In this document: positions 1,099 to 18,978 of the stretch, in pieces
How positions within the stretch are numbered: position 1 is the stretch's first letter
How the letters are laid out: each line of letters opens with the position of its first letter
IMG/VR virus record: IMGVR_UViG_3300035664_000005
Coordinates: 1 to 64,000 of that record
DNA: 64,000 nt
Origin: a virus
Strand: one strand, 5' to 3'
Translations under genes and position numbers: made by a program
Notes under the pieces: generated by a model
What the model was told of the DNA's origin: nothing
Seen by the model: only the letters and a program-made list of their open reading frames with translations
The model's database searches: none

Positions 1099-1527
1099 TT
1101 ATCCTAGTGTTGTATGTTGGCTGTAGGTTTGTTTGAAGTGTTCTCTGTCTGCGCCTGTGGAGAGTGAGAGTCCGACTATTCGGATTACTTGTTTAAGTTT
1201 TTCGGGGATGTGTTGATCGGGTTGTGCTGTTCCTGAGTTGACGGTGTCTCGGAGGTGGCAGTAGGTGTTCCATGCTTGTGTGGCGGTGGGTTCTGCGTCG
1301 GGTTGGGTTTGTTTCCATTCTAAATAGATTTCGCCGGGGGTTGGGAAGAAGTGTTCTGTTTTGTTTAGTTTAACTAGGATGGTTTCTAGTTCGTTTAGTG
1401 GGCAGTCTTGAAGGATGAGCCACCATGCACGGTAGGTGATTTTGCGGTCGTCGTGGTCTAATGGTTGTTCTTTGCTCCACATGGCGTGGGCTAGGTCTAC
1501 GAGGGTTCGGCATTCAGTCTTGTTCAT
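1099..1527 (-). CDS. replicative helicase loader/inhibitor-like protein (SPP1 G39P-like N-terminus)
   Basis: AW..IL.D......L......FFPTPGEI...AW pattern; coupled to upstream initiator-like gene. Confidence 0.55.
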   Translation of the reverse strand: MNKTECRTLVDLAHAMWSKEQPLDHDDRKITYRAWWLILQDCPLNELETILVKLNKTEHFFPTPGEIYLEWKQTQPDAEPTATQAWNTYCHLRDTVNSGTAQPDQHIPEKLKQVIRIVGLSLSTGADREHFKQTYSQHTTLG

Positions 1528-1933
1528 CTATCCATTCCTGTCCTGCGTCTCGTTTGTTGGATCGTTGTAGGAAGTATTCCACTTTTTCTGCGTTGCGGAA
1601 TATCAAACCTATACCGTTATATTTGACTTGTTGTTTGTTGGATCCCATATGGAAAGGTGATTTCGCGCAGGCATCTATGGCTTGTTTGCAGGCGTCTACA
1701 CCGTAGTCGTGGACAGCCCAGCCGATACTTACGACACGATCGGTGTCTAGGATCGCCTTTTTGGATTGCATTGCTTCAACCCAGTAATCCCATATTTCTT
1801 GGATTATGTCGGGATGGATTTTGGAAGCCTTGTCGCCTTGAGTCAATTTCCTTTTTCGTTTAGGTTTATCTAAGTTGTTTACGCCACCGTTCGGGTTGGG
1901 GAACAACTCTTCATTTTTTGAAGTAATCATCAA
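1514..1933 (-). CDS. phage replication initiator/replisome organiser C-terminal-like protein
   Basis: EIWDYW...R...I.....YGVDACKQAIDAC..SPFHMG.N....Y....LIFRN..KVE.F resembles phage initiator C-terminal domains. Confidence 0.5.
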   Translation of the reverse strand: MMITSKNEELFPNPNGGVNNLDKPKRKRKLTQGDKASKIHPDIIQEIWDYWVEAMQSKKAILDTDRVVSIGWAVHDYGVDACKQAIDACAKSPFHMGSNKQQVKYNGIGLIFRNAEKVEYFLQRSNKRDAGQEWIDEQD

Positions 1934-1937
1934 ACGA

Positions 1938-1966
1938 ACTCTACACCCTTTTCAGTAAAAGGTCAA
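1938..1966 (-). promoter_or_regulatory. sigma70/SigA-type promoter TTGACC-N17-TAGAGT, leaderless for 1514..1933
   Basis: Hexamers read directly at 1966-1961 and 1943-1938; start codon a few nt downstream. Confidence 0.65.
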
Positions 1967-2217
1967 GTACTTCCGGCCGGTAATAAGTAATTGGTAGCAA
2001 CGTTGCTCTTAACAAAGAGGAAAGAACCTGTATCGGTAAAAACTTTGGAGAGTGTGAGAACCTTTACCAAACCTTTTCGGACGTTCGTGCAGCCGAAACA
2101 AGATCCGCGATTTTGTCTAGTCGCAGATTAAGATTTGATTATGGATCGCGCGCGAAAGGTTGTATACGCCACCGTGCATGTTAGATGCTTATCTGCGCTT
2201 ACTATTTTATTCGTCGC

Positions 2218-2530
2218 AGTCCCGTGTAGCAGTGGTAAAAGATAGCAGACCAACAGCCCCGTCACACGCACGTTTCAAAAATAAACCACTATTAACGTCG
2301 TATTGTGTCCGACAGTCCCGCGTACCCGTGGGTAACCACAACATGTGGTGGTAACCCGCATGTTGGGGCGGGGCTATCCCGCAAAATGTGGAAGCATGCT
2401 TGCGGGGCTGATAACTGTTGTTAGGATAAAAGTTATCGGCGGGGCTCTGAAGACCCCCATCTGAAAGACTCGTCGTGGTAGTGAAGCGGGGCTACGAACT
2501 CTTCGTCGGGTTGAGTGTTGTAGCCCGCTT
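2218..2530. repeat. convergent array of AG[CT]CCCG(C) half-sites in non-coding DNA
   Basis: Forward sites 2218, 2255, 2314; reverse GCGGGGCT at 2368, 2402, 2439, 2486. Confidence 0.75.
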
Positions 2531-2647
2531 CCTACTTCAACCTAAACCAATTTGAGTTCAGGTTTTTTGTAGGTTGGGTGGTCACGCATGGATCGCGTGA
2601 GGTCGTTGTTTCCGCCACCGTTCAGTTTGTGGAACTTCGGTTTCTTT

Positions 2648-2995
2648 TTAGAACGGTTCTTCTTCGTCGCCATCGTCGTCTCCTAGATCGTCAAGTTTCT
2701 GTTGCCATTCCAATAAGATGCTGAACGCTTCTGATCGTCGCAAGATTGCTTTATCGGTCATGATCGGCCAGTCTTTGATTGGTGTTGCGAACCCTTCAAA
2801 GTATTCTTGCATTCCTTCTTCTGTTCCACAGTCGGAACATACTTCAATAGGTTTATGTGCGTCTTGTCCTCGTGTGAGTCGCGAGATCGCACCCATGTAT
2901 TGTTTGTGATGCGCGTTTGATGGGATTAGTCCTTCGCATCGCGGGCAGATGCCCATGTCAATTTGTTTGCCGTGGATTTTGTTCCAAGGTTTCAT
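2648..2995 (-). CDS. hypothetical protein with CxxC...CxxC Zn ribbon
   Basis: CPRC and CSDC motifs; operonic with upstream genes. Confidence 0.65.
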   Translation of the reverse strand: MKPWNKIHGKQIDMGICPRCEGLIPSNAHHKQYMGAISRLTRGQDAHKPIEVCSDCGTEEGMQEYFEGFATPIKDWPIMTDKAILRRSEAFSILLEWQQKLDDLGDDDGDEEEPF

Positions 2996-3156
2996 TTCCT
3001 ACTCCTTGTTTCTTGTTGGTTTAGTTTTATAGGTTCGTGTGGGGAGTTGTTGCCATCCCACCCGCATTGTTCTGCAAACCATTGGTCTTGCCATATGACT
3101 TGCTTGTTATATCTTACATCGGTTATTGCCCATCCACAATATTTGCAGGTTCTCAT
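2992..3156 (-). CDS. small hypothetical protein (MRTCKYCG...)
   Basis: Start reassigned to ATG at 3156; ATGA overlap with downstream gene. Confidence 0.5.
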   Translation of the reverse strand: MRTCKYCGWAITDVRYNKQVIWQDQWFAEQCGWDGNNSPHEPIKLNQQETRSRK

Positions 3157-3173
3157 TTTATATCCGCCACCGT

Positions 3174-3392
3174 TCAGTTTGGAATAGGGGTTTGTTCGTA
3201 AACCATGTATTCCCCGTCGTTGTTGATCGCGATGCCTGTGACCCAACTGTTGCGATGTTCTGATCCCGTCGGACTGTATGGATCGTCGCCTATTATGATG
3301 CGCGTTTTGTATACCGCGTTAGACATCGCTTCAATACTGTCTTCTGCTTCAACATCTGTTGTCACCATTGTTGTTACGCGATACTTTGCCAT
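3174..3392 (-). CDS. hypothetical protein (MAKYRVTT...)
   Basis: TAATG coupling with 3392..3715; start reassigned to 3392. Confidence 0.6.
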   Translation of the reverse strand: MAKYRVTTMVTTDVEAEDSIEAMSNAVYKTRIIIGDDPYSPTGSEHRNSWVTGIAINNDGEYMVYEQTPIPN

Positions 3393-3715
3393 TACCTGTT
3401 GTCCTCCATATATTTGTTCACTGCTTTCAAACCGACATTCAGGATCATAGTTATTGGAAGAAACGCTGACGCTTGCGCGCCGTAAGTTTCTCCGTTCTTC
3501 TCTACTGACTCTGCGATCATCCGTTCTATGAGTTCGCTGTTGAATGCGACGCAAACATCTTTATCGCCGATCCCATACACCAACGGTTCCAACTCGTCTT
3601 TCACTGTGAACACCTCAGGAGGTGCGGTCAGGAATGTGACCTTAGTTCCGTCTTCATGTTCCATACGGATCATTACATCGTCGTTGTCTTCTTCTAAAAA
3701 GTCTTCAAAGTCCAT
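3392..3715 (-). CDS. hypothetical acidic protein
   Basis: ORF track; operonic coupling. Confidence 0.65.
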   Translation of the reverse strand: MDFEDFLEEDNDDVMIRMEHEDGTKVTFLTAPPEVFTVKDELEPLVYGIGDKDVCVAFNSELIERMIAESVEKNGETYGAQASAFLPITMILNVGLKAVNKYMEDNR

Positions 3716-3774
3716 GTCTTATTCTTTCTGATGACATATACGCCACCGTTCAATTTGGATAAAGCCACTTCTGT

Positions 3775-4296
3775 TTAGAAGTGGTAGTCCACGATCACGA
3801 TCCACTGTTCTTCAGGGTTGGTCGCGCATCTGTCTTGTAGATATTTCGGGTTGGGTGTGTATTCTTGTGAGTCGTAGAAGTGTATGTCTGCGCCGTATTC
3901 GCTGTTCTTGACACGCAACGCTTGTCCGACTCTGAACACCGCGAGGGAGTTCTCTAACTGAGTGTCTCTCTCGTTTTGTGTGAGGTCGTTGTTTGACGAG
4001 AACCCGCCGAAGTCGTATTTGGGGTTGGTCAAGAGTTCCTTGAGTGTGATGTCCCCATACTTGCGGACTGTTTGGTCAATCGTTTCTTGTGTCCACCCCA
4101 ACGCTTCTTCAACAAGTTCGTTGAACTTTTCAGGGTTCGCTTTGTAGTTTGTTGCGACAGATACGCCGTCAAGACGATCGTTGTCGGGTAGTGAATGCCA
4201 ATCTGACCATGCTTGATTTTCTGCGAACTGTAGTGCTCTACCTTTTGCGTCCTCTTCGTCCATTGCTTCTACTGCTATTCGGTGATATGTATGCAT
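3775..4296 (-). CDS. hypothetical phage protein (C-terminal WIVIVDYHF)
   Basis: AAGGAGA RBS upstream; C-terminal vvDyH motif recurrent in phage early genes. Confidence 0.75.
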   Translation of the reverse strand: MHTYHRIAVEAMDEEDAKGRALQFAENQAWSDWHSLPDNDRLDGVSVATNYKANPEKFNELVEEALGWTQETIDQTVRKYGDITLKELLTNPKYDFGGFSSNNDLTQNERDTQLENSLAVFRVGQALRVKNSEYGADIHFYDSQEYTPNPKYLQDRCATNPEEQWIVIVDYHF

Positions 4297-4306
4297 TTTG
4301 TTCTCC

Positions 4307-4525
4307 TTAGAATTGTCGTGAGTTCACAGGGTTGCCCTGATTGAATGTGAGTGCTGAATAACCATCTTCTGATGGAATGTGGAAACCGTCTATGTTGTAA
4401 TACCAACCGTCTAGGTCTCCGATAACGATTTGTGTGTTTGCATCAAGACCTTCTAACACTCGGATTAGTTGTCCGACTGTGAGAATGCCTCCTGATGTTT
4501 GGGTGTATTCGTAGATGTCTTGCAT
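4307..4525 (-). CDS. hypothetical protein (LTVGQLIRVLE.LD motif)
   Basis: Common small phage protein N-terminal motif; TAATG coupling. Confidence 0.7.
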   Translation of the reverse strand: MQDIYEYTQTSGGILTVGQLIRVLEGLDANTQIVIGDLDGWYYNIDGFHIPSEDGYSALTFNQGNPVNSRQF

Positions 4526-4959
4526 TAGATGTTTCTCCCCATGATGTCGCTTGCGTAGTTACGGATACCTGATACGAGTTCCTCGCTGTAAACATTCCAC
4601 AAGTAATCGGACGAGAGGATGTATTGACCCAACTCGTTTAGTTGATCGTCTGTGAGTTCTTTTGCGAACTTGTATTCGTCGCTTGCGTAACCGCTATCTA
4701 AACGATCGGTGATTTCTTCGCGCAACGCTTTCACACTGAATGCGATTGAGTTCGCATAGGTGAGATCGTTGTCGGTGTATCGGTCTAGATCAACACCGTA
4801 TTTCTCGCCGATCTCACACGCTGTTCCGTCGTTCCCACCGTCGTTCCACTCCTGTAGAAGTGCCTTACCTGCTTCGTCTAGTTTTTCTGTATCCACGATC
4901 ACTGTGCCTGCGAGATCACAGACCGTGCCGTCGTGGATGTTGATTAGGAACTTGCCCAT
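4525..4959 (-). CDS. hypothetical protein
   Basis: Start reassigned to ATG 4959 after GGAG RBS; TTGCAA-N17-TATAAT promoter at ~5019-4991. Confidence 0.7.
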   Translation of the reverse strand: MGKFLINIHDGTVCDLAGTVIVDTEKLDEAGKALLQEWNDGGNDGTACEIGEKYGVDLDRYTDNDLTYANSIAFSVKALREEITDRLDSGYASDEYKFAKELTDDQLNELGQYILSSDYLWNVYSEELVSGIRNYASDIMGRNI

Positions 4960-5037
4960 TTTTGTTACTCCATTTCTAGTAGGTGTATTTATTATATCGG
5001 CTACAAAAACATTTTGCAACCTGAGGCGGTTGGGTTG

Positions 5038-5391
5038 TTACACCCGAACCGCCCTACTAAGGATTTCTGCCTCAATCTCTTTTACAGGACGAGGACTCCA
5101 ATGACAGTCGCGTTCCACCGCAGGGACACCGCCGAAGACGGTCACTGCTTCTAGTTCGCTGTATGAGAAGTATCCATATTCCATCTCAAACCCGTCCACA
5201 AGACCCCAAAAGGTATCTTCGCCGTCAAACTCAATCGCATACCAAGTCCATTGGGAATACGGTGAGAAGAACTTTACTTGCGCGATCGCTTCCATTTCGG
5301 GATGCTTCTCGCTGTTGTATAGGGGTTTCAGTGTTCCCTTGATTTCTTGTGTCAAGAGTAGGTGTCTGCGTTTTGCTCTTTGTGTTTCCAT
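5038..5391 (-). CDS. DUF2958-like protein
   Basis: VKFFSP...WTWY..E.D....FWGLVDG.E.EYGYFS..EL......VERD signature; GAGGAG RBS before ATG 5391. Confidence 0.8.
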   Translation of the reverse strand: METQRAKRRHLLLTQEIKGTLKPLYNSEKHPEMEAIAQVKFFSPYSQWTWYAIEFDGEDTFWGLVDGFEMEYGYFSYSELEAVTVFGGVPAVERDCHWSPRPVKEIEAEILSRAVRV

Positions 5392-5510
5392 TATTTTTGC
5401 TCCTCGCAATCGTGACCGTAGAACCATTCGTTCGCGTCGTCTTCTTCCATGAGGTTGAAAACTCTGTCGCATTCCACGCATTTTGCTTTTGTGTGACTAA
5501 CGATCGTCAT
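5391..5510 (-). CDS. small Zn-binding peptide (39 aa, not in ORF track)
   Basis: MTIVSHTKAKCVECDRVFNLMEEDDANEWFYGHDCEEQK; TAATG coupling on both sides. Confidence 0.6.
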   Translation of the reverse strand: MTIVSHTKAKCVECDRVFNLMEEDDANEWFYGHDCEEQK

Positions 5511-5848
5511 TATTTCGCTCCTTCAATCATGTCGGTATTGGTTTCAACGATCGTCGCCCAAGTGGTCGCCCACTCATTGACATCTTTCAACCCAATGATT
5601 TCGCCTTCAGGTTCACGCTCAAGAACATGAAGAAGAGTCGCCATGCGTGCTGTCGCTGTAGAGAGAAGATCAAACTCTTCTTCCCAACCGTTCGCCACAT
5701 AGTCGCCCCAAATTAGAACGAACTTGTTGAACATGATGCTTTCAGGTTCGGTTTCAATCAAATAGATTTCTGCCGAGTCTGCGTGCAACTCAAACAACAT
5801 ATTTGAGTTTGGATACTTTCTGCTTATTTCGTTTTTTATGACTGACAT
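5510..5848 (-). CDS. hypothetical protein
   Basis: AAGGAGA RBS and upstream promoter 5907-5928. Confidence 0.75.
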   Translation of the reverse strand: MSVIKNEISRKYPNSNMLFELHADSAEIYLIETEPESIMFNKFVLIWGDYVANGWEEEFDLLSTATARMATLLHVLEREPEGEIIGLKDVNEWATTWATIVETNTDMIEGAK

Positions 5849-5935
5849 ATTTTCTCCTTAGTAGTTTGTTTAGTATGGATATTCGGACTGTTTGCCCTTA
5901 CCCCAAATAATAGGGTAAGGGTGTAACACGGTTGT

Positions 5936-6565
5936 TTAGACGCTTACTCCCAACGCTTCTTTGCATTGACTTTCAATCGCTTGGATGACTTGCAAGACTT
6001 GTTCGTAGAACTCGTCATACTCTTCGTTCTCTGACTGCTCTTCAGTCATTGAAGGGTATTCGCCTTCAATGTCTGCCATGATCTCGCCGTTACGGAATGC
6101 GTAACCACCACAGAACGCCATACCACCCTCGTCGTATGACAGAACAAAGTCAAGTGTCGGGAACTGCTTGGACACATTACAGATACCCTGACCGATCGGA
6201 GACCATGCTGACATGAAAGTCAAGTTGATTTCGTTATCGGTAATTGCACCGAACACACCATCAAAGTCTGACCATTTAGAACCGTAGTTCTTGCAATTCC
6301 ATTCATACCAATCAGGTGAACCAAACTTTTCAATGTTCGCTTTCTGCATTGCTTCCATTTGGATTTGCTTTTCTGAACCTTCGCCGAAAGAACCTTTTGG
6401 TGTTTCACGAAGTTCGGTCGGTGTTGGTAACAGGTTGTCAAGAATGCTGAATTGGTTGTAGTTCTCTCGTTCGCCATCTTCGTTCTTGATGATCGCTTCA
6501 TGGAAACGCTTGATTTCTTTTGCGTCGCCTGTAACGGTCAGATGGTTAGTGCAATAATTTGGCAT
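5936..6565 (-). CDS. DUF1281/YubB ferredoxin-like domain protein
   Basis: MPNYCTN.L.V.G ... DWYEWN..NYGSKW ... F.SAWSP ... Y.E.GM.F.G signature. Confidence 0.8.
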   Translation of the reverse strand: MPNYCTNHLTVTGDAKEIKRFHEAIIKNEDGERENYNQFSILDNLLPTPTELRETPKGSFGEGSEKQIQMEAMQKANIEKFGSPDWYEWNCKNYGSKWSDFDGVFGAITDNEINLTFMSAWSPIGQGICNVSKQFPTLDFVLSYDEGGMAFCGGYAFRNGEIMADIEGEYPSMTEEQSENEEYDEFYEQVLQVIQAIESQCKEALGVSV

Positions 6566-6938
6566 TTCTATTTCTCCTCGTCTAGTAGTTGATATGTTTA
6601 TTTGCTTACCCTCACAATATATCTGAGGGGTGTTGCAGAGTTATTTTTAGTAGGTGCTTATTTATTACTAGTATCATTATATACACACCACAAAACAAAT
6701 TGCAACTATCTTCCCAAAAACTTTTACGCGAGATCGTTGATCCAACCCGAAGATCGCGTTTAGGTTTATATACGCCACCGTTCAGGTTAGATAACAATCA
6801 ACTGATGCTAACTAACAACCGTTGCAAACTAGACAGCCCCGCGTATCCGTAGCACCCCGTGCTACAGCCCCGCCCCCTCGCGCGCACGCGCGGGACTGTT
6901 GCAAGCGAACAACTGTTCGCGGGACTACTATCTGCGTT

Positions 6939-7319
6939 ATGACAATTTCACGCACAGACAGATGGCAATACAGGTTCGGGGCTCTAAAACAGTATGCAGA
7001 TCGGACAGGAACTTCGCTTGTCCCTGCAACACAGGTTGAGGTTTATCAGGGGAAGAATGTCGCGGTTGGTGCATGGGTCGCCTACAACCGTCAGCAATAT
7101 CGTCTCAAGGAACTATCAGTCGCGCGACAAGAACAACTTGAAACGCTCGTGGGGTGGCATTGGGACAAACAAAAACCTGGCAGACGCTACGACAAGAAGC
7201 GAGACACAGATATTGCTCGGCGTTATAAAGACGGTGAGCGTGTAGGTGTTATCGCAGATAGTTACAATTTGTCGCGACAACGAGTTCATCAGATCTTGAA
7301 GCAGTTACAAAATGTCTAA
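6939..7319 (+). CDS. helicase-associated (HA) domain + C-terminal HTH protein
   Basis: W..RF.ALK.Y....G...VP.......VGAWV..NRQ......LS..R..QLE.L.GW.WD; C-terminal IADSYNLSRQRVHQI HTH; TACTAT-N7-ATG leaderless start. Confidence 0.75.
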   Translation: MTISRTDRWQYRFGALKQYADRTGTSLVPATQVEVYQGKNVAVGAWVAYNRQQYRLKELSVARQEQLETLVGWHWDKQKPGRRYDKKRDTDIARRYKDGERVGVIADSYNLSRQRVHQILKQLQNV

Positions 7320-7662
7320 TCCCGAGTTTGGTCACGATCACAACAAGCGTGACGCATGGAAGAAGATGAGCGAGTGGTCGCATAGTCTTTCCGATGAAGA
7401 CTTGAATGAATTGTTTAGAGAAGATGAAGATGATTTCTACGATTACGAATTGGAGCGAGAAACAGTGAGCAAACAATTAAGTAAGTTTATTGTTGGGTTG
7501 TTCGGTGCATCGCTCGGTATCGGTGGTATGTCGTTCGTTGTTTATCGTGTCGCGCTCGCGTTGGGTGTGGATACTTTGTCGTTTGGTGAAGCGGTGATCG
7601 TGACCGCAGGTGTTGCTTTCATCCGTTACGCGGACGCAGGAGTAATGAAACAGTTCCGATAA
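7312..7662 (+). CDS. membrane protein
   Basis: Acidic N-terminus and two hydrophobic segments; overlaps upstream stop. Confidence 0.65.
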   Translation: MSNPEFGHDHNKRDAWKKMSEWSHSLSDEDLNELFREDEDDFYDYELERETVSKQLSKFIVGLFGASLGIGGMSFVVYRVALALGVDTLSFGEAVIVTAGVAFIRYADAGVMKQFR

Positions 7663-7793
7663 ACACAGCAGGACGCACCCTTGCGAGTGCGCCCTCTGCG
7701 GAGAAGCCGAAAGGTGAAAGGAGAAGTCCTTTCGTTTCCTCTAGCAATACAGAATAACATATAACCAATATGTTATTCCGAAGCGATTAGGTT

Positions 7794-9284
7794 TTACCCT
7801 AATCGTTTCCCGTTTAATTTTTGATATGTTTCGTTCCAACATCTTGGATACCACTTGGTCGGTTTCTTGCCGACCTTGAGTTGGTTCAAGACCGCGAGAC
7901 CTTGTTCAACATTGAGTGCCATAAACACTTTGTGCTTCAAGACTTCTTTAATGCAATCCTGCGCCAAGATGTCGTGATACCCACCATATTGTCCGTTGTT
8001 GCCAAGACCGTGAACATGACCGTCAGTAATCCAAACGATCGGAGTGGACGCTCGCTTGCGTTGCTTGATCGCCCAACGAATTGCTTCGCCGTCTACGCCG
8101 TTACCGCCGTTGCGTTCAGGAAGTTTGTCTACCATTTTTCCGTTTTGCGCAATGATAAGAAGGTTTGGTTTGACATTGTTTCTGTCTGCTGAATAAACCG
8201 CAACCGTGCAACCTGCTGACGCTTCTGTGATGTCAAGAATATCTTTGTGAGAGAATGACATTGAACCTGAACCGTCAATCAAGACGATACCGCCGTTGCC
8301 TTTCTTGTATCGGTCAAACACTCGCTTCTCGGGGTCTGCTAATGCATTGCCAATTCTGCGAGGGTTGCGACCCATGTTGCACGCTGTTCGCTTGCGACCG
8401 AGACCGCCATGCGCTTTACGAGTAAGTGGAAGTGTGCCGATGATTAGATTGCCCCAACTCGGAACAACACCGCTACCTTTGTCTGCGTCCGTTGGACGAA
8501 CTTTCTTTGGATCTGCTTTCGCAGGTTGATCGGTTGCGCCGTTACCTTTTGCACCGTCTTTCTTTTCTTTTTTAGGTTCTCCTTCACCGTCTTTGGTTTC
8601 ACCCTTTTCGGTGTCACCCTTTTCGGTTTCGTCCTCGTCCTCTTGCGGTGGGTTTGCCAAACGATCTACCCACTCTGCAATGCGCTCTGTGTGCGCAAAA
8701 CCAAACGGTGCTAAACCGTGTCGTGGGTCTACTTCAGTAGAACCGAGTGTGCCTGTCTTGAACGCCTTGACAAACTCTTTTTCAACTGCCTTGATGATCT
8801 CGCGCAATGTTTTCGCCCATGCAGGGTTCACACGCCTTACGCCTGTGATGAAGTCTTTACCACCACCACAGATTGAATACCCAACCGCAATATAAACCGC
8901 TTGAGTCCAATCCGCTTGTTCTGCAATGCGAACGCCTGACGCTTTCTCACTTCCGTCTGCGAGAAGATCAACATCAAATCCTGCTTTCTTGATCAGGAAA
9001 TTAACGCGAACTTCTTCAACGACTGTGAGTGCGCTTTCAGTTGCGATACCACGCGCTATCCACTTTGGGAAATCTTCCGCAGGTGAGAACCTCGCGTGTG
9101 CCATTTCGTGCGCACGGATAACTCGGTCAATCTGCTCGTCACCGACAGGGACGACCATGTGTTTCGTTACGACATTGGTCATCGGTTTGCCACGAACAGG
9201 TGCGCAAGTATCTACACGCCACTCGCCTGCGTCTTTATCTTTACGCCCCAACATCTCGGGGAGTGGTCTAATTTCTGTTTTCAT
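7794..9284 (-). CDS. VWA (MIDAS) domain protein with N-terminal HExxH metallopeptidase-like domain, CobT-like
   Basis: HEMAH; charged linker; IDGSGSM MIDAS; GGNG and ITDG motifs. Confidence 0.8.
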   Translation of the reverse strand: MKTEIRPLPEMLGRKDKDAGEWRVDTCAPVRGKPMTNVVTKHMVVPVGDEQIDRVIRAHEMAHARFSPAEDFPKWIARGIATESALTVVEEVRVNFLIKKAGFDVDLLADGSEKASGVRIAEQADWTQAVYIAVGYSICGGGKDFITGVRRVNPAWAKTLREIIKAVEKEFVKAFKTGTLGSTEVDPRHGLAPFGFAHTERIAEWVDRLANPPQEDEDETEKGDTEKGETKDGEGEPKKEKKDGAKGNGATDQPAKADPKKVRPTDADKGSGVVPSWGNLIIGTLPLTRKAHGGLGRKRTACNMGRNPRRIGNALADPEKRVFDRYKKGNGGIVLIDGSGSMSFSHKDILDITEASAGCTVAVYSADRNNVKPNLLIIAQNGKMVDKLPERNGGNGVDGEAIRWAIKQRKRASTPIVWITDGHVHGLGNNGQYGGYHDILAQDCIKEVLKHKVFMALNVEQGLAVLNQLKVGKKPTKWYPRCWNETYQKLNGKRLG

Positions 9285-9375
9285 TTTGTTTTTCCTTTTG
9301 TCTAGTTGGTTTATATCTCTTGCTTATGGAGACTTGATTACACCCCCACCTTACGGCAGGGGTGTAACACGGTTG

Positions 9376-10104: not shown

Positions 10105-10199
10105 TTTATTGCCTTTCGTTTTAGGTGGTTAGTATTTTTATTTTTATTGCTTTGGTTATTACACCCCCAACATTACATTGGGGGTGTAACAGGGTTTAG

Positions 10200-10601
10200 T
10201 TACGCTACTTGCGCTTCTGCTGTTGCCTTGCTGTCGGACTTTGCGCCCTTGAGTTCGGTAACACGGATTTGCTCGTATGCGGTGATCGTGGTTACTGCGT
10301 CTGCGACATCTGCTTTGATGACACCAACTTCAACCGCCGACTTGAACTTCTTTCCGTCAATGGTTGCTTTCGTAACCGTCTTGAAAACTTTGTCGGACAC
10401 GAGATCCTTCAATGCTTCCACGCTGTAGTTCGGACGCTCGCCCTTAACGACTGCGACTTTTGTTCCGTCTACGACTGCGTAATCCACGCCTGCTTTTGCG
10501 AGTTCCAACTTGAAACTTGCTTCCGCTTTTGCGAGGTTCTGCTCTGCTGTTGCCAATGCTTCTCGCATTTCCAACACTTGCTTCGCTGTATTTGTAATCA
10601 T
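10200..10601 (-). CDS. hypothetical phage protein (coiled-coil N-terminus)
   Basis: Own promoter 10652-10673; strongly biased codon use. Confidence 0.75.
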   Translation of the reverse strand: MITNTAKQVLEMREALATAEQNLAKAEASFKLELAKAGVDYAVVDGTKVAVVKGERPNYSVEALKDLVSDKVFKTVTKATIDGKKFKSAVEVGVIKADVADAVTTITAYEQIRVTELKGAKSDSKATAEAQVA

Positions 10602-10748
10602 GTTTTTTGCTTCTTTCTATGTTTAGGGATATTTCTAACTTCTTAACCACCACTCTATATGAGGGGTGTAACACGGTTACTTTCTTTGCTATCAGACTAA
10701 CTATCTATGATAGATAGTCTAATACCACTTGTGGGTAAAAAACAACCT

Positions 10749-11021
10749 CTATTTCAAGATTTCTGAAATTGTTTGATCTAGGTTGGTTGCGAACTCTGCC
10801 ACCACGCTGTTCTCGTATTCCTTCATGATCAGGTCGGTGAGACCACCGAACTTGCCTGCGAGGTCTTGTGCCACTACTAGACGGTCACCAAGAGTGTCTG
10901 AACGCTCCTGATCGGTCGTCTCTAACGATTCCGCACAGTCTTTGATGACCTGCCCACCCAACGCGAGATGTATGTAAAACGCCTCGCTCGCTGTGAGTGT
11001 CATTGTGTATTGCTTTTCCAT
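10749..11021 (-). CDS. hypothetical protein
   Basis: AAAGGA RBS before ATG 11021. Confidence 0.65.
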   Translation of the reverse strand: MEKQYTMTLTASEAFYIHLALGGQVIKDCAESLETTDQERSDTLGDRLVVAQDLAGKFGGLTDLIMKEYENSVVAEFATNLDQTISEILK

Positions 11022-11103
11022 GTTGTTTCCTTTCGGGTTGTTTGTTGTTGTATCTCTATTACGCACTGAGCCCCCGAAAGTGTGCGGTCTTTTTTAAGAA
11101 ATC

Positions 11104-11136
11104 TTTTCCACAGGGTTGTCCACAGGATGTGGATAA
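11104..11136. promoter_or_regulatory. three DnaA-box-like 9-mers at 12-bp period
   Basis: TTTTCCACA 11104, TTGTCCACA 11116, TGTGGATAA 11128. Confidence 0.65.
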
Positions 11137-11314
11137 CTCGTTTAGGTTTATATACGCCACCGTTCAGGTTGGAGATCATTTCAGGATCGCCGATCCCCGT
11201 GCGCCCGCGCCCGCGAGCCCCGCGTTGCTTGCATCCTCCCGCGAGCCCCGCGCCACATTCTTGGTGGCGGGACTCGGCACAAAGTAAGGGGAGGCTTCCG
11301 CCCCCCCGTGCAAT

Positions 11315-11458
11315 TTACTTTGCGTCCCTGTGACCCTGTTGGTCTGAGAACCACTGCAAGTCATCATGGTGAATGTCTTGCGCGTCTTCCATCTTTTGGA
11401 ACTGACGCTCGCGTGCTTCTGCTTTCTCAAAAATCTTTTTGAGTTCCGCTTCTGTCAT
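11315..11458 (-). CDS. small protein (47 aa, MTEAELKKIFEKAE..., not in ORF track)
   Basis: AAGGAGA RBS, promoter 11516-11537. Confidence 0.7.
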   Translation of the reverse strand: MTEAELKKIFEKAEARERQFQKMEDAQDIHHDDLQWFSDQQGHRDAK

Positions 11459-11643
11459 ATTTTTTCTCCTTTCTTCTGTGTAGGTGGGGCGATTGCCTCA
11501 CACTTATATAACGCAAGATTACGGCAAGGGTGTGACATAGATAAATCTAAAAATATTTCTAGATCGGCGTCACACTTTATATGACCATGTGCGTTATATA
11601 GATGTAGGGCAACAACGCACTACCAAAGCGTTAGGAGACGCAG

Positions 11644-11787
11644 TTGGAAATCAACTATGAAGCAATAAAAGAAATGACCCGAGCGTTGAAGCAAGAAATT
11701 GCACGAAACGGGATCAACGAAAACAATTCGCAATGGGTTCACGAAATGCGAGTTGCGATTGAACTTCGTGAAAGCGGTGTCTACTAA
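11644..11787 (+). CDS. small protein (47 aa, MEINYEAIKEMTRAL..., not in ORF track)
   Basis: AGGAGA RBS at 11633, TTG start, terminator downstream. Confidence 0.6.
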   Translation: MEINYEAIKEMTRALKQEIARNGINENNSQWVHEMRVAIELRESGVY

Positions 11788-11800
11788 CACCGCCAAGAAG

Positions 11801-11832
11801 ACCCCAACTCGGAAACGGGTTGGGGTTTTTTG
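11801..11832 (+). terminator. intrinsic terminator
   Basis: ACCCCAACTC-GGAAAC-GGGTTGGGGT followed by T run. Confidence 0.75.
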
Positions 11833-11960
11833 TGCCCTAGCCCCGCAGGCTGATGGTGTTACCGCACAGCCCCGCGATCCGATGCGCGACGCGGGACTGA
11901 GACAAAAGAAAACCCGCAGAAGATGTTTGGTCTCCTGCGGGTTGATGAAGCGTCAGGTGT

Positions 11961-12203
11961 TTAGTAGACCCCGAACGATATTCCGTCTGATGTCATCCCG
12001 AACAATGCACCTGCGTCGTTTCCTTCTGTGTCCATTGACGGATACAGAATTGTTCCGCTTGACAGGACGAGAACCATAGGGATTTCTCGTTTGCGCCAAC
12101 CTTCTTTGTTCATTTCTTCTTTTGTCATCGGACGGATGTCAATGATTGTTGATCCGATCATTGAGTCGTCTACGGTCTCTGCTTCGTATGCTGTTTCACT
12201 CAT
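11961..12203 (-). CDS. hypothetical phage protein (PSMDTEGNDAGALF motif)
   Basis: G..I.DIR.MT..E....GW and S.D.EGN..GALF pattern of a recurrent phage family. Confidence 0.75.
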   Translation of the reverse strand: MSETAYEAETVDDSMIGSTIIDIRPMTKEEMNKEGWRKREIPMVLVLSSGTILYPSMDTEGNDAGALFGMTSDGISFGVY

Positions 12204-12245
12204 CTGCTTATCTTTCTGTTTGGGTTTATATGAAGCGTCTCGTTG

Positions 12246-12497
12246 TTACACGGACGCTTCCACAGGTGATTTGATGTTTGCTAGTTCGCGCTCCAACTCC
12301 GCGCCTTCAACATTGTTCATGAGGTCAATCAAATTGTCCAACCAATTTGCAACCGATGCGGGTATGGGTGTCGTGTTGAGATAGTCGGTGTATTTGTTCA
12401 ATACGCCATCTATTTCGTTTGCTAATCCTGCACCTTCAACATTGTTTGTGATGTCAAGGATTTCTATGACTAGGTTTAGGTAACTTTGCTTTATCAT
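12246..12497 (-). CDS. hypothetical protein with internal duplication (NNVEGAxL x2)
   Basis: AAAGGA RBS; promoter 12530-12551. Confidence 0.7.
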   Translation of the reverse strand: MIKQSYLNLVIEILDITNNVEGAGLANEIDGVLNKYTDYLNTTPIPASVANWLDNLIDLMNNVEGAELERELANIKSPVEASV

Positions 12498-12554
12498 TTC
12501 TATTTCCTTTCGTTTAGGTTTATATAAATATCTTACTGAAGCGGTGTAACAGGG

Positions 12555-12692
12555 TTATCCCTGCCACCTGAAGTTACGACACGCCTTCTTGTCGTTCTTC
12601 TTCCGCTTGTCTGCGACACGCTGTGCCTTCAGGATGTTCCTGTCTGCGAACGCCTGACGCTCTTCTGCCGACCATGATCTATCTATTTTCAT
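12555..12692 (-). CDS. small basic protein (45 aa, not in ORF track)
   Basis: TAATG coupling to 12692..13168; open frame ending ...KKACRNFRWQG. Confidence 0.55.
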   Translation of the reverse strand: MKIDRSWSAEERQAFADRNILKAQRVADKRKKNDKKACRNFRWQG

Positions 12693-13168
12693 TATGCCCT
12701 TCTCCTGTTCAGTTTCCATTCTTGACAACTATGTATCGCTTGCTCGTCTACTTGCTGTTGGTTCATATCTTTTGTAATCAACGGACGGTATCCGCATGAA
12801 CCGCACGCAACACCGAGATACTCGGTGATACCTTGCGCTACCTGATATGCGTGAACCGTAGTGTTGCCGTGAGTTCTCTCGTTGAGATAAACGGTGATGA
12901 ACACTTCACAGTTCGCGCAACCGATGATCTTGACATCTTTGCCGTCAGTCGGTGCTTGTTTCGCAAAGAAGTCAAACTTGAAGTGATTACAAGTTTCGCA
13001 CTTGTCGTCAAGTTTGCGCGACTTCGCAACTTCTGTTTTGCCTTCAGTTATAACCGTCCACTCTTTTGGGAGTATTCCTTTTTTTGTTGCTTGCGCGATC
13101 AAGTGATTACGCACTTGCCATTCCGTGTAAGGCTTGGCAACTTTTTTTACTTTTTGCTTCTTTGCCAT
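12692..13168 (-). CDS. hypothetical multi-CxxC Zn-binding protein
   Basis: CETC, CANC, CGSC; AGGAGA RBS; promoter 13222-13243. Confidence 0.75.
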   Translation of the reverse strand: MAKKQKVKKVAKPYTEWQVRNHLIAQATKKGILPKEWTVITEGKTEVAKSRKLDDKCETCNHFKFDFFAKQAPTDGKDVKIIGCANCEVFITVYLNERTHGNTTVHAYQVAQGITEYLGVACGSCGYRPLITKDMNQQQVDEQAIHSCQEWKLNRRRA

Positions 13169-13312
13169 TTTTGTCTCCTGTCTAGGTTTAGTTGTTTAGG
13201 TTTATCTAATTGCTTACTACTACTATAACGCAACGGTGTTGTAAATATGTGTCATTTTTAGATATATTTTTTATTATATCCGTAATATATCAGGGGCATA
13301 ATATCCCCACCT

Positions 13313-13333
13313 TTATCCACACCCTGTGGATAA
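13313..13333. promoter_or_regulatory. inverted pair of perfect DnaA boxes
   Basis: TTATCCACA-ccc-TGTGGATAA next to AT-rich tract ~13255-13290. Confidence 0.7.
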
Positions 13334-13785
13334 CTTCACCTGAGACAGAACTGCGATCGTGTCTCAACATCGCCGTTGTGGTTTATATACGCCACCGTTC
13401 AAGTTGGGGAGTGTTGATGTCATGATGTCATGATGTCGGATCGCCCGATCCCATAGCCCCGCGCCATCCGTCGCACGGCGGGGCTCACAAGTCTCGCATC
13501 CGTTCGCGGGGCTGTCGCCGTCGGATCTTCGGTTTGTTGGGATAGTGTTGGGATATGGCTATGCCCTTCAGTCCCAAGCATTCCACTAACTTGCAGATCG
13601 GCGAAGTTATTGACGCGCTCGCGCAAACTGAGCCCGATCTATTTGGCGAAGGTGACGCGACACTAATGCCCGTGCAATACTCTGATCGTCTCGCGTTAGT
13701 GATATGCGATCGTTCGCTAGGGGAGCCCATAAACGCTAATAGCCCGCCTGCCTAACGGCGGACGGGCTACGACACTGCGGACTAT

Positions 13786-14028
13786 TTACTTATTGCGTTG
13801 CGACTCTGCCCATAGGTGACGGAATACGAACGCAGGTATCGCGCTCCCGTCATCCGTGAAGTAGTAACCATTGTCAAGTGTTGAATGATCGGGGATAGTT
13901 ACGATCTTACGCCGAGTAGATCTATGCGCATACCAATATCCAACGATAAAAATATTGCGATCGCTTGTCGTCTCCCATTGCCAACGCGACGCGCCGACAT
14001 ATCCCTTATAGGTGAGTTGAGTGCTCAC
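13786..14028 (-). CDS. hypothetical protein
   Basis: GTG start overlapping upstream TGA; hairpin downstream at ~13740-13770. Confidence 0.55.
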   Translation of the reverse strand: MSTQLTYKGYVGASRWQWETTSDRNIFIVGYWYAHRSTRRKIVTIPDHSTLDNGYYFTDDGSAIPAFVFRHLWAESQRNK

Positions 14029-14273
14029 GCCTGCACCCAACCTTGTGGTGTGCGCATTGCCCATAGGTATGGTTGGACTTCAACGATGAGATCCGTGAGT
14101 GCTTGCGACACTTCATCCCGACTAGTTGCCATGCCTGCAATGAACTCTTCGTATCGTGCGTTTATGAGATCGTCTACGATCGCACCGATAACGCCGATAC
14201 CCGTTGCGCCGATGCCGAGATAATTCTCTGCAAGGACTTCGCTAATAGATACCGTCTCAATAATCTCTGACAT
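14025..14273 (-). CDS. hypothetical protein
   Basis: AAGGAG RBS before ATG 14273. Confidence 0.65.
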   Translation of the reverse strand: MSEIIETVSISEVLAENYLGIGATGIGVIGAIVDDLINARYEEFIAGMATSRDEVSQALTDLIVEVQPYLWAMRTPQGWVQA

Positions 14274-14379
14274 AAATTGCTCCTTGTGTAGTAGTTGGTT
14301 GTAATCGGCTTGCGCCTTGTGCCTAGTTGGAATTGAATCCCACGCCGAACGCGCTAGGCGACTCACCTAAGTGAGTGTG

Positions 14380-14829
14380 TTAGATCGCGACCGCTTCGCT
14401 GTAACGAAGTGTGCCATCGCCACCCATCGCGATCTCAGTCGCGCGTGCCCAAAGGTTGCCCACGACTTCATTACCGCGTGCCCACGAAGTTAAACATCCG
14501 AGAACTTCAGTCTCAAACTCCGCGAGTGCTTTATCCGAGTATCGCTTAACCGACTTACGGATAAGAGTTGCGAACGGATAATTTACGCGATCGTAAATAC
14601 CAACCAATTCACTTGTCTGATCGTAGTGTCGCAACGCGATGGACGACATGAGTTGCTTATTATCCGCATCGTGCCAAATTGTGATACGCACTAAAGTGCC
14701 CATTGGTCTGCCATCCACTTCAACCGAGTCACAAGTCGGACTCTTAAGTGTGTAGGTGATCTCGCGATCTTTAACCTTGCGTGTCGCTTGCGCTAACACT
14801 GTATTTTGACTAACAATTAAATTACTCAT
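14380..14829 (-). CDS. hypothetical protein
   Basis: GGGAGA RBS; promoter 14877-14898. Confidence 0.75.
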   Translation of the reverse strand: MSNLIVSQNTVLAQATRKVKDREITYTLKSPTCDSVEVDGRPMGTLVRITIWHDADNKQLMSSIALRHYDQTSELVGIYDRVNYPFATLIRKSVKRYSDKALAEFETEVLGCLTSWARGNEVVGNLWARATEIAMGGDGTLRYSEAVAI

Positions 14830-15466
14830 TATTTATCTCCCATGTCTAGTTGGTTTATGTTTATTACTTACTGTCTATATTACGCAACGGGTGTTGCATA
14901 GTGTGACATTGCCATTCTGCAATATCGCGTATCCGCTATATCCGTGATCCGATATCTACGATCCGATATACGGTTTATATGCGCTACCGTTCAGGTTGGG
15001 GACTTGGATCGGCGATCCGCCCGCGCTACGCGCCCGCCCGTGCCCGCGAGCCCCGCGCGCTAAATGGGGGCGCGGGACTGTCAAGTTTTTTGGGGCAAAC
15101 AGTAGCGTTTGCAGTGTCGCCTTACCCCCCTGTGACACATATGAGCCCCGCGTGTTTACACGGGATGCGGGGCTGTGGGCAGAAAAGCCAGAGCCGCGGG
15201 TTGGGGAAGCCGCTGAGCGGCTTCGCCGTCGGTATCTGTATCTGAACTGAGACAATTACACAATCCTTCCGAAGTCGGAATAGTTGTGACGATCGGGCTT
15301 AGAAACAAAACACCCTCGTAGTTAGAAAACTCGCGTGAGAAGTAGCGTCCATGATGTGTGAGTGGCACGGTGCGCTCAACCTAGATAGCCGTGAGACGCA
15401 CTACAAGCCCCTATAAACGCAAATAGCCCCCACCCCGAAGGGTGAGGGCTCGCGCCTTGCACGCGC

Positions 15467-15925
15467 CTAGTGAGGGACTCCGTTCCAATAAGGTCGCGGT
15501 TCAGTCTCCGAGTAATCGTCCTCCGAAACCTGCGCGCGAACATTCTCAATGTTCGTGAAGTGCGTGACGCCTTCCGCCGTCTTGAAACCGACCTTGACCA
15601 CGCCGTAACCGTCCTCCTCGGGTGCGACCCAAAAGACCTCGCCGACCGTGCCTTTAGGAACTTTGCGCCCCTTGAAAACCTCAACGGTTTGACCCTTGAC
15701 GACCTTGCCGTCCGCGATCGCCTGCGCGAGACGATCCTCCTCGTGACGGAGGATTTCCGCCCAACGCGCGACCTGCGCCTCGGTGTGCCTGTGTGGTTGT
15801 TTCCAACGACCCACGCCACCCTCGTATACCTGACCTGCGCGCTCCGCGAGGTAACGCACGCCATTGCGGTTGATGTCCCAAAACACCTCCGCACCGCACC
15901 CGCGACAAGTAGTTAATTTGCTCAT
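15467..15925 (-). CDS. hypothetical protein: N-terminal Zn ribbon + KOW/SH3-like C-terminal domain
   Basis: CRGCG...H; KGQTVEVFKGRKVPKGTVGEVFW; AAGGAGG RBS; promoter 15958-15979. Confidence 0.75.
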   Translation of the reverse strand: MSKLTTCRGCGAEVFWDINRNGVRYLAERAGQVYEGGVGRWKQPHRHTEAQVARWAEILRHEEDRLAQAIADGKVVKGQTVEVFKGRKVPKGTVGEVFWVAPEEDGYGVVKVGFKTAEGVTHFTNIENVRAQVSEDDYSETEPRPYWNGVPH

Positions 15926-16009
15926 ATGCCCTCCTTGGGGTCTAGTAGTTGATACACAGATTACGCACGGGGTGTAACAAAGTGTGACTTGGATAAACCT
16001 AAACGGGGA

Positions 16010-16066
16010 GACGGTCATGCCGCTTGGTTTGACGGTCATGCGGCTTGGTTTGACGGCGAAGCCGCT
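16010..16066 (+). repeat. 21-bp tandem repeat, about 2.7 copies
   Basis: GACGGTCATGCCGCTTGGTTT / GACGGTCATGCGGCTTGGTTT / GACGGCGAAGCCGCT. Confidence 0.75.
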
Positions 16067-16466
16067 CTGGCTCCACTTGCTATCTATGGCTTGATTTTGT
16101 GTATGCCCATAGCCCCGCAAACCGCGTATCTACGCGGGACTAGCGAATTGCGGACCGCATACTTTTTGGGATCGCCGTGCTGCTGAACGTTCAGAAAAAA
16201 CTCACAAAACGTGCAAAAACGTCACTTTTTGACGTTCTTCAGAAAAACTAAATTTAGTGTCAAATTTAGACTTTTTTAAAAGCCTTATGTTGTAAGGGTT
16301 TTATGGAATGAGTTTTTGGGGAACTTCTGAGCCAACACGAAAAACCATCAAAAAGAACAACTTTTGAAAGATCCGGCTGCCAGGTCCCACAATTTCGGGC
16401 AGGTCTTTCTTCAGGATGCTCGGAAGTCCCGTTGGTGTATCAGTTTGATACCCGTTTTAACGGGAC

Positions 16467-16697
16467 TCAGAAGAGAGTTGGGGCATCATCAAAGGCGTTA
16501 CGCGACTCAGTGCATATTCTGTGTGCATAACCAAGAGGGGTTGAAGGGTTGCGTGGCGCACCAATGTAACGCCCGTTGTTGTGTTCTACCCAAGCCATCA
16601 CCTTCACACAATATGAAGTGTTCACCGTGTCAAACTCAATATTACAGATGGAGCAGGAAACTTTCACGATCCGATCATACTCGCCGAAAGTCCGCAA
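16467..16697 (-). CDS. hypothetical Zn-binding protein
   Basis: CSIC...HRIC. Confidence 0.5.
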   Translation of the reverse strand: MRTFGEYDRIVKVSCSICNIEFDTVNTSYCVKVMAWVEHNNGRYIGAPRNPSTPLGYAHRICTESRNAFDDAPTLF

Positions 16698-16718
16698 TAC
16701 AAAGCGGGGATTATTTGG

Positions 16719-16880
16719 TTAGTTGTCCACGCCGACGGTTACGAGTTGTTCTGTTGGGGTTTGTAATTCACACAACATACGGAGGTCTAAAAGTAGATCA
16801 ACCATCTCCGAAGATGCGACAAGTTCTCGCCCTGAGATGGTTCTGATTGTTTTGTCTATGAGTTCAATGGTGGGTGTCAT
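16719..16880 (-). CDS. small protein (53 aa, MTPTIELIDKTIRTISGRELV..., not in ORF track)
   Basis: AAGGA RBS and ACTAGAC leader. Confidence 0.6.
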   Translation of the reverse strand: MTPTIELIDKTIRTISGRELVASSEMVDLLLDLRMLCELQTPTEQLVTVGVDN

Positions 16881-17057
16881 TAAGTTCCTTGTCTAGTTTA
16901 ATAGTTTATCTTAATTTATTCATAGAACGGTTTCGGTGGTCGCTCTTTCGGGTTGTTGCGTCCGAACCTGCGTATTTGATACAACGCAAAAAGAATTGGG
17001 ACACCGAAGAACGCCACCAAGACCATCTTGATAGTCAAAAATATACCGACTGTGCGT

Positions 17058-17270
17058 TTATTCATGCTCACCGACGAGGTTTAACGCTTCATCTATTTGC
17101 ATGGATGTCTTGATGGAATGGTCGCCGTCATACATGACAGTCACATAGTTTGCGCCCTGTGAAGGGTCTTTCGCAAGGTCGCAAATCTCTGCGTATGCCT
17201 GCGTAATTGCGTCTATGTGGTTATCTGCGTCGTAGATCATTTCCCAACGGACTAGGTAAGGTTTGGTCAT
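17058..17270 (-). CDS. hypothetical protein
   Basis: ATGA coupling with 17267..17479. Confidence 0.6.
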   Translation of the reverse strand: MTKPYLVRWEMIYDADNHIDAITQAYAEICDLAKDPSQGANYVTVMYDGDHSIKTSMQIDEALNLVGEHE

Positions 17271-17479
17271 GCGAATGCGTCTACTTGCCACTTGAACATT
17301 GGTTTGACACCGAGTTCATCATTTATGGTTCGGTTAGTCACCTCAACATCAACCTTGTATTGCTCCAAGTATGCGAGTTCTTCTGCGAGTTCCATCTTTG
17401 CGTTCTCTATTTGTGAACGAAGTTCATAAACTCGTTTTGATGTTGTCTCAAATGTGCGCTTCCGTTTTCTCAGTTTCAT
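17267..17479 (-). CDS. hypothetical coiled-coil protein
   Basis: AAGGA RBS; promoter 17516-17537. Confidence 0.65.
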   Translation of the reverse strand: MKLRKRKRTFETTSKRVYELRSQIENAKMELAEELAYLEQYKVDVEVTNRTINDELGVKPMFKWQVDAFA

Positions 17480-17547
17480 TTGTTTTCCTTTTTTAGTTGG
17501 TTTATGTTGATTGTTACCTTAATTGATGGGTGTAACAAAGTGGTGGA

Positions 17548-17814
17548 TTAGAACGCTTGTTTTTCTGCCCTGAAAGACTCAGGTAGTTTTAATCCGCTTT
17601 GTGCATGAACGATCATGCTTTCTGCGTTGTATAGAATCTCACGAAGATCAACCAATGTTTTGATGTGAAGTGCCGAACGCTGATTGTTGTCGCGCGCGAC
17701 TGTTTCACTGATTATCGTGTCAATCGTAAGTGCTAATGCTTTGCTGATACGACTAAGACTTGCTGAGTCCTCATCAAATATTTCTGCTAAAGATTGCTGT
17801 CGTGCTTCTGTCAT
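17548..17814 (-). CDS. hypothetical protein
   Basis: TTGCTT-N17-TATAAT promoter at 17889-17861. Confidence 0.7.
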   Translation of the reverse strand: MTEARQQSLAEIFDEDSASLSRISKALALTIDTIISETVARDNNQRSALHIKTLVDLREILYNAESMIVHAQSGLKLPESFRAEKQAF

Positions 17815-18092
17815 TTATTATTTACCCCTTTCAGAGTTCTAGTATTTATCTAACATACCCATTATATACGAGTCTTAGTTGAAAAGCAACCTTAAAAAAA
17901 AATCTATATCCGCCACCGTTCAGGTTGGGGAACTTTGGTGCGATGCCTGCGTGTTGGGTGAGGGGGGGTGTCCCACTTCTGACTTCTGAGCCCCGCTCCG
18001 CTTCTTCACTTTTTTCCTTGGCGGGACTAAAAGACTTGCAAATGTTTGGGAACTCAGATAAACTAAAAAGAAATACTAGAAAAAGGAGTTTT

Positions 18093-18701: not shown

Positions 18702-18766
18702 CTTTGTTACACCCCACCCATATAATGGTAGTTGTAATATAAACCTACTAAATAAGGAGAAACTAA

Positions 18767-18976: not shown

Positions 18977-18978
18977 TC

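Follow-up and report, generated by a model that had tools for sequence, protein, structure and literature searches.

A polar 30-bp repeat of the leftward early genes of an uncultured freshwater phage, tentatively read as a phage-specific promoter

Introduction

What does a long, strictly one-way sequence do when it is repeated through the early region of a large phage? The question is raised by motif A, a 30-bp element of IMG/VR record IMGVR_UViG_3300035664_000005, a 100,945-bp sequence from an uncultured virus that is ~71% complete and of which the first 64 kb (64,000 nucleotides) form the stretch hereafter called the window. A sequence-only reading of the window had reported ten copies in a single orientation and proposed a directional signal for DNA entry, replication or recombination, or else a roadblock to transcription. 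Motif A is a real, polar, consistently placed and deeply conserved element of the leftward early genes and, among the readings considered, that of a phage-specific promoter explains most of the facts and is held here tentatively. Freshwater actinobacteria are among the most abundant bacteria of lakes and their large phages are uncultured. A polar, deeply conserved signal at every early unit offers a handle on the timing of the genes of host takeover, and motif A serves as a compact marker of the early region, and of its orientation, in related contigs.

A polar repeat confined to one strand

The exact core, CGCCACCG, is matched ten times in the window against 1.14 expected, a count that none of the shuffles reached. 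Nine of these matches lie at positions given by the sequence-only reading and the tenth, at 62010, has no motif flanks; the copy at 14982 reads CGCTACCG, with one mismatch to the core and complete flanks, so that the motif stands at all ten positions previously listed and the core at one of them is inexact. Across the whole record, a degenerate 18-mer finds ten sites forward and none in reverse, and its reversed-pattern control finds none. Similarly, a scoring matrix trained on related phage contigs alone, this record being left out, returns exactly ten sites in the 100.9-kb record, all on one strand between 1.9 and 17.9 kb and scoring 23-49 bits, the best non-motif sites reaching 4.5 bits forward and 5.5 bits reverse. 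These scans uphold both the ten-copy, one-strand observation (10 forward, 0 reverse) and the claim that no copy occurs after 18 kb or on the other strand, nothing else in the 100,945 bp exceeding 5.5 bits on either strand; the background-level pattern in both orientations that such a scan might have uncovered was not seen. A chance origin is ruled out by the shuffles together with the gap in matrix scores.

The informative span of motif A is 30 bp, from p-8 to p+21 around the core start p, and in the sense of the genes it reads TTnyCCAAmyTGAACGGTGGCGkATAyAAA (69 copies, eight genomes). Eleven positions are invariant among these 69 copies, and conservation has sharp edges (-13 to +16) with free flanks. 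One copy had been placed inside a coding sequence; two in fact lie within conserved open reading frames (ORFs), copy 1 in 1517-1930 and copy 3 in 2542-2673. The latter ORF, on the minus strand and missed by simple gene calling, encodes a conserved lysine-rich peptide of 43 amino acids (..KLNGGGNNDLTRSMRDHPTYKKP..) in which the motif is translated as KLNGGG. A peptide-coding repeat (LNGG, in one frame) was considered and rejected, as the core has no synonymous variation, most copies are without a conserved ORF and the frame differs in other lineages.

Conservation in related phages and distant lineages

Motif A recurs in eleven records of related uncultured phages; those that cover the region hold 7-11 copies apiece, in corresponding places and never reversed, and the seven best-sampled relatives together with this record contribute 69 copies, of which 0 are reversed. 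In two near-complete relatives (138 and 145 kb, the larger being colinear with this record) and several fragments, the copies keep one orientation within ~17 kb; one fragment, whose end falls inside the block, retains a single copy. In relative G007 a weak copy-2-like site remains (16.9 bits) at the place first scored as copy 1.

Variation among these genomes bears on the proposal that motif A is a recombination site shuffling early gene cassettes, like the PeSL (early promoter plus stem-loop) of T4-type phages. The genes that flank copy 4 come and go among relatives, the motif remaining in place, and one relative possesses an eleventh unit with a duplicated dyad-plus-motif module, both of which are in keeping with shuffling. 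However, copy order and number are stable across genomes, and homology breakpoints show no excess at the motif (11 of 118 within 60 bp, or 9.3% against a background of 9.3%). Recombination, an option of the sequence-only reading, is therefore very improbable. An integron-like attC site was likewise rejected, no integrase having been found.

More distant lineages (36-51% identity) were found through alignment of initiator-like proteins. The full matrix fails in these genomes; the core CGGTGGCG, in some CGGTGGTG, is kept at 4-9 copies per locus within the consensus TGA-CGGTGGYG-GAAAGC. In 13 such loci, totalling 160 kb, the core CGGTGGYG occurs 80 times in sense and 11 times in antisense, and an ORF starts at most 120 nucleotides (nt) downstream of 60 of the 80 sense copies; the usual place of the core is 10-50 nt ahead of a gene start. 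Where the arrays are compact, the stop codon of the upstream gene is often the TGA or TAA of the motif itself and the next ATG follows at 8-50 nt, with about one copy per small gene, and in an unrelated lineage the core ends 8 nt before an ATG.

Such junctions of stop and start codons are also what makes an RNA element conceivable, lying between the cistrons of early polycistronic messages as a processing, ribosome standby or re-initiation site; GGTGG, GGCGG and GAAAG resemble ribosome-binding sequences, and two copies lie within ORFs. Nevertheless, copies 6 and 10 stand between divergent promoters, upstream of the first leftward promoter, the distance to the start codon ranges from 8 to ~210 nt, and no conserved fold was found, the small internal pairing not being kept among copies and Rfam giving no match for motif A. 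An RNA role thus appears improbable. A known RNA family or tRNA was also sought and none was found, and a structured RNA after copy 2 was ruled out, the alignment fold there being tidy but its energy ordinary (z -0.9, both strands).

Among cultured phages, none was found to have motif A and none is closely related. Literature searches on the motif string found nothing relevant, and a 15-mer scan of host genomes gave single, chance-level matches only. The kind of element, repeated, polar and phage-specific early control sites, is familiar, but the combination of features is not.

Arrangement of the copies in the early block

Gene calls based on codon usage place almost all genes between 0.8 and 17.8 kb on the minus strand, the exception being a two-gene island at 6939-7662, and all ten copies are co-oriented with the minus-strand genes of this block. 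This does not bear out the earlier suggestion that orientation is set by the chromosome rather than by the local transcript, which had drawn on the copies at 6773 and 17911 in divergent gaps; both are sited on the side of the leftward unit, upstream of conserved leftward promoters. The copies are scattered at intervals of 0.3-4.4 kb, with five of them inside 1.9 kb in the compact left part. Each leftward unit is headed by a copy, those at both divergent gaps included, and the convergent end at 467-799 has none. Rightward units contain zero copies, also in the near-complete 138-kb and 145-kb relatives.

The five large gaps share a common order in the sense of the genes: GC-rich dyads, a variable stretch (sometimes with a GATC palindrome), motif A, a second variable stretch (sometimes with paired DnaA boxes), a promoter, a ribosome-binding site and the start codon. 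The promoter is of a conserved TTGCTT-17-TATAAT type and/or consists of a TGTTACACCC box followed by a genuine TAnnnT. How far it lies from the motif varies (21 or 49 nt at copy 10) and, over all copies, the motif lies anywhere from 8 to ~210 nt before the start codon. At copy 9 the order is dyads, GATC palindrome, motif A and a B-box-like promoter, and copy 6 lies upstream of both TTGCAA-18-TATAAT (6676-6705) and a B-box promoter. Two conserved divergent promoters enclose the motif and a dyad at the block's right edge, copy 10 being placed between P_R and P_L in 8 genomes (Table 1).

In the gap that holds copy 5, a hairpin (3765-3784) is followed after 2 nt by the motif and then by the ATG of gene 3392-3715, which lies 17 nt from the motif end and 25 nt from the core end, and no further promoter-like site is present. 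From the core end of copy 4 to the ATG of a small CxxC ORF the distance is 7-9 nt in four genomes. This ORF (2995-3156, minus strand), missed by simple calling, encodes a conserved protein of 54 amino acids and is absent from three relatives.

Table 1. Copies of motif A and associated features, in coordinates of the window
Feature	Coordinates	Strand	Remarks
Motif A copy 10	17903..17932	-	43.3 bits; divergent gap, head of the whole leftward early block
Motif A copy 9	14974..15003	-	45.7 bits; core CGGTAGCG
Motif A copy 8	13382..13411	-	49.0 bits; then paired DnaA boxes (13313-13333) and a B-box-like promoter
Motif A copy 7	11147..11176	-	47.6 bits; then DnaA boxes (11116-11136)
Motif A copy 6	6765..6794	-	49.0 bits; second divergent gap
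Motif A copy 5	3733..3762	-	42.1 bits; in a 59-nt gap
Motif A copy 4	3157..3186	-	45.4 bits; overlaps the TGA stop of gene 3174-3392
Motif A copy 3	2605..2634	-	23.4 bits; degenerate AT part (GAAACA)
Motif A copy 2	2159..2188	-	33.7 bits; after the octamer array, before ~200 nt of conserved non-coding DNA
Motif A copy 1	1874..1903	-	32.2 bits; degenerate AT part (TAAACA); in the 5' part of the initiator-like gene
Replication-initiator-like gene holding copy 1	1517..1930	-	phrog_16167, E 2.9e-14
AGYCCCGC / GCGGGRCT octamer array	2218..2493	.	no coding signal; conserved across relatives; bracketed by copies 2 and 3
Leftward promoter P_L, TTGCTT-17-TATAAT	17861..17889	-	downstream of copy 10; conserved in 8 genomes; motif distance varies by 28 nt
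Rightward promoter P_R, TTGCAA-17-TAAACT	18036..18064	+	conserved in 8 genomes
WhiB-family gene	153..467	+	Pfam PF02467, E 4.8e-14; phrog_472

A phage-specific promoter and its rivals

The reading favoured here, at somewhat less than an even chance, is that motif A is a non-SigA, phage-specific promoter heading each early transcription unit. It would act as a DNA signal in the sense of the leftward early genes, contacted by a factor over an unbroken ~2.5 helical turns that comprise an AA pair, TGAA, the GC-rich core CGGTGGCG and the AT-rich nATAyA; the DNA would open at this last stretch and RNA would start ~8-9 nt after the core. The motif offers no TAnnnT -10 element, and neither an RNA polymerase nor a sigma factor of the phage's own could be detected; its reader would therefore probably be the host polymerase, redirected by a phage protein. 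The start of transcription at the motif, its exact position and the identity of the reader are what we infer from the following observations. Polarity matches transcription and copies occur solely within the minus-strand block. In the compact part, the genes that follow copies 4 and 5 have no other promoter-like element before them. The GC-rich core with an AT-rich stretch after it, and the spread of ten copies at 0.3-4.4 kb, are reminiscent of T7-type promoters and of the phiC31 early repeats. The lower limit of ~8 nt from core to ATG, found in two lineages, fits leaderless messages. A promoter or leader was the very outcome that the sequence-only reading had named as refuting its own proposal; it is now the leading explanation, but the promoter would not be an ordinary one.

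Several observations weigh against a promoter. Motif A lacks both features of SigA (sigma-70) promoters, a TAnnnT -10 and a -35 with a free spacer. The AT part is never TAnnnT, its last position being A or G in 69 of 69 copies (+14 is A in 61 and G in 8, and every hexamer register of the AT part ends in A or G). There is no -35-like hexamer with a free 16-18 bp spacer, the most strongly conserved bases falling in the would-be spacer, and a scan for consensus promoters calls no copy, bar a weak overlap at 2166-2138. In this record and the two near-complete relatives, searches for Sigma70_r2, for motifs of T7-type polymerases and for DxDGD all came back empty; PF00940 was not matched, but the positive control for this T7-type Pfam family also gave no match. 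No ORF of at least 450 amino acids carries polymerase motifs B and C. Well-conserved promoters, canonical or of the B-box kind, lie downstream of five copies, which are thus not needed for expression of the next gene, copies 1 and 3 lie inside ORFs, and the GAAAG of some distant copies could be a ribosome-binding site, which would put the motif inside the message.

Further candidates were set aside. The large ORFs of no assigned family resemble a head effector of the GNAT type and a protein of tail fibres, which does not support a hidden polymerase among them. Alternative host sigma consensus sequences and the ops element, compared by eye, gave partial matches alone and no conserved second element, and an archaeal TATA reading was given up in view of the WhiB gene and of promoters that are conserved and of bacterial type.

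A bolder version of the promoter reading, of low probability, would make motif A a T7-style contiguous promoter common to a wide group of freshwater actinophages, for which either a new phage factor would re-aim the actinobacterial polymerase at a 30-bp site without a -10, or an unrecognised polymerase would be present among the proteins of no known family. Were motif A a true promoter, the missing -10 and the lack of a known polymerase or sigma factor would point to an undescribed way of redirecting transcription.

The roadblock envisaged by the sequence-only reading is still a live rival, as is a role in replication, and DNA entry has found no support. At a stoperator-like site, a phage protein would bind and would stop or repress the host polymerase in an orientation-dependent manner, for example in the late shut-off of early genes. 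The asymmetry of motif A, its occurrence in short gaps between co-directional genes and the tie between its orientation and transcription all fit such a site, as do an actinobacterial host, shared with the stoperator-bearing mycobacteriophages (PMC9283540), and a small helix-turn-helix (HTH) protein encoded divergently beside copy 6. However, motif A is 30 bp and not 13, and is absent from all other transcription units. No homologue of L5 gp71 was found (tblastn best E 1.1), nor any tyrosine or serine integrase. In the five large gaps the next promoter is downstream of the site, so that a block there would not silence the next genes, and ahead of the copies in divergent gaps there is no evident leftward transcription that they could stop. 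A stoperator-like role is therefore unlikely, if worth keeping in view.

Copies around a candidate replication origin

A role linked to replication could take the form of a binding or start site for the initiator-like protein or a primase-helicase, or of a promoter whose transcripts activate a nearby origin. Half of the copies lie within 1.9 kb around the octamer array and the initiator-like and loader-like genes, copies 3 and 2 flanking the non-coding array on either side, and the array itself makes a candidate origin of replication. Several lineages have a copy in the 5' part of the initiator gene, but in differing reading frames, from which it follows that the constraint acts on nucleotides and not on the peptide. 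Copies 7 and 8 are each followed by a pair of DnaA boxes, and the core, or else its C-to-T variant, is present in all lineages found by way of the initiator. The last point is tempered by the route of the search, as loci reached via the initiator do not give independent co-occurrence. Moreover, the copies are spread over 16 kb and form no iteron array, and distant lineages have roughly one copy for each small gene, placed shortly ahead of the gene's start. Taken together, a replication-linked role has a low probability.

The initiator-like gene 1517-1930 has a promoter, TTGACC-17-TAGAGT (1938-1966), and its ATG, at 1930, comes 7 nt after the -10 hexamer, so that the gene appears leaderless. 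Gene 6939 on the plus strand is likewise leaderless in appearance (TACTAT, 7 nt, ATG). Near the octamer array, gene 1099-1527 on the minus strand has a weak helicase-loader match (phrog_2289, E 6e-4).

Other features of the block and of the phage

Several further sequence features accompany motif A. Another one-way repeat, TGTTACACCC when read along the genes, is found 6-7 nt before a TAnnnT hexamer and directly before minus-strand genes; it has at least 8 copies, all within the block, between 5901 and 17544 of the window (e.g. 9342-9374, 10164-10196 and 12524-12556). Dyads of the form AGYCCCGC ... GCGGGRCT, with free inner sequence, occur at 6835-6927, 11244-11276, 11868-11900, 13455-13487, 15049-15176, 16111-16143 and 17989-18030, as well as in the array at 2218-2493. 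The stretch from CCYG to CRGG measures 17-18 nt in 46 of 55 dyads and, in the sense of the genes, the third pair has T opposite G in 36 of 55, so that the two halves differ consistently. Palindromes of sequence GGATCGNCGATCC lie between dyads and motif at 11184-11196 and 15006-15018, and downstream of copy 9 CGGAT repeats form a run (14905-14970). The inverted DnaA-box pairs, of the TTATCCACA type, at 11116-11136 and 13313-13333, just downstream of copies 7 and 8, are conserved in relatives. Divergently from copy 6, gene 6939-7319 (+) encodes a small protein whose sequence contains a helicase-associated domain and gives a weak HTH match, and an inverted repeat, GCGAACA..TGTTCGC, is located just upstream of its -10 element.

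The presence of a WhiB gene (153-467) suggests that this freshwater phage, of mid GC content, infects actinobacteria. Neither a tyrosine nor a serine integrase (PF00589, PF00239) was found, nor a family A DNA polymerase. Over the full record, 248 occurrences are expected for each of GGCC and CCGG; the former, strongly avoided, is found 8 times and the latter 66 times, a scarcity that suggests avoidance of restriction sites. In the 145-kb relative (L085), positions 14939-18994 encode a protein of 1351 amino acids whose homologues swap fn3, beta-helix and lectin-like ends, and which is probably a tail fibre or receptor-binding protein.

Comparison with known systems

The start-associated sequence of cluster K phages is fixed 3-8 bp before start codons, whereas the distances of motif A to start codons are variable. 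T7-type promoters have a GC-rich core followed by an AT-rich stretch by the start, and occur as many co-oriented copies, some of them inside upstream genes. Motif A shares with them a contiguous conservation of ~25-30 bp, forming a 30-bp block, against ~23 bp in the T7 type, with nATAyA in its 3' part; it differs in that no single-subunit RNA polymerase gene was found in this genome.

The L5 stoperator consensus has the letters GGTGGC in common with motif A. The stoperators of cluster A phages are asymmetric, lie in short intergenic gaps and have an orientation tied to transcription (PMC9283540). Motif A is similarly asymmetric, with 10/10 copies following minus-strand transcription. However, stoperators are 13 bp long and extend over all lytic units, whereas motif A is 30 bp long and limited to one 16-kb block, also in the 138-kb and 145-kb relatives, and neither a gp71-type repressor (best E 1.1) nor an integrase was found here. 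The PeSL cassettes of T4-type phages combine an early promoter with a stem-loop between small variable early genes (PMC2839356, PMC4122927). Motif A, too, is a repeated element among such genes and in many cases has a hairpin immediately before it; unlike PeSL, it is not a sigma-70 promoter and shows no excess of indel boundaries (9.3% versus 9.3%).

Phage phiC31 has nine one-way repeats before its early genes, beside dyad repeats, and promoter and operator roles of its early and CIR repeats were reportedly described by Ingham et al. in 1993 and 1994. Motif A has no sequence likeness to the phiC31 repeat GGGTTGCCGAC, and phiC31 encodes the sigma-like gp12, of which no counterpart was found here (tblastn with gp12, best E 0.38). 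The phiC31 repeats also keep a steady 45-60 nt from start codons, whereas motif A lies at 8 to ~210 nt, often with a promoter between. Despite these differences, the two systems are alike in layout: each belongs to an actinophage, ahead of the early genes of each stand ~9-10 one-way repeats, contiguous, 20-30 bp long and unlike housekeeping promoters, and in each conserved dyad (CIR) repeats occupy the same gaps as the one-way repeats.

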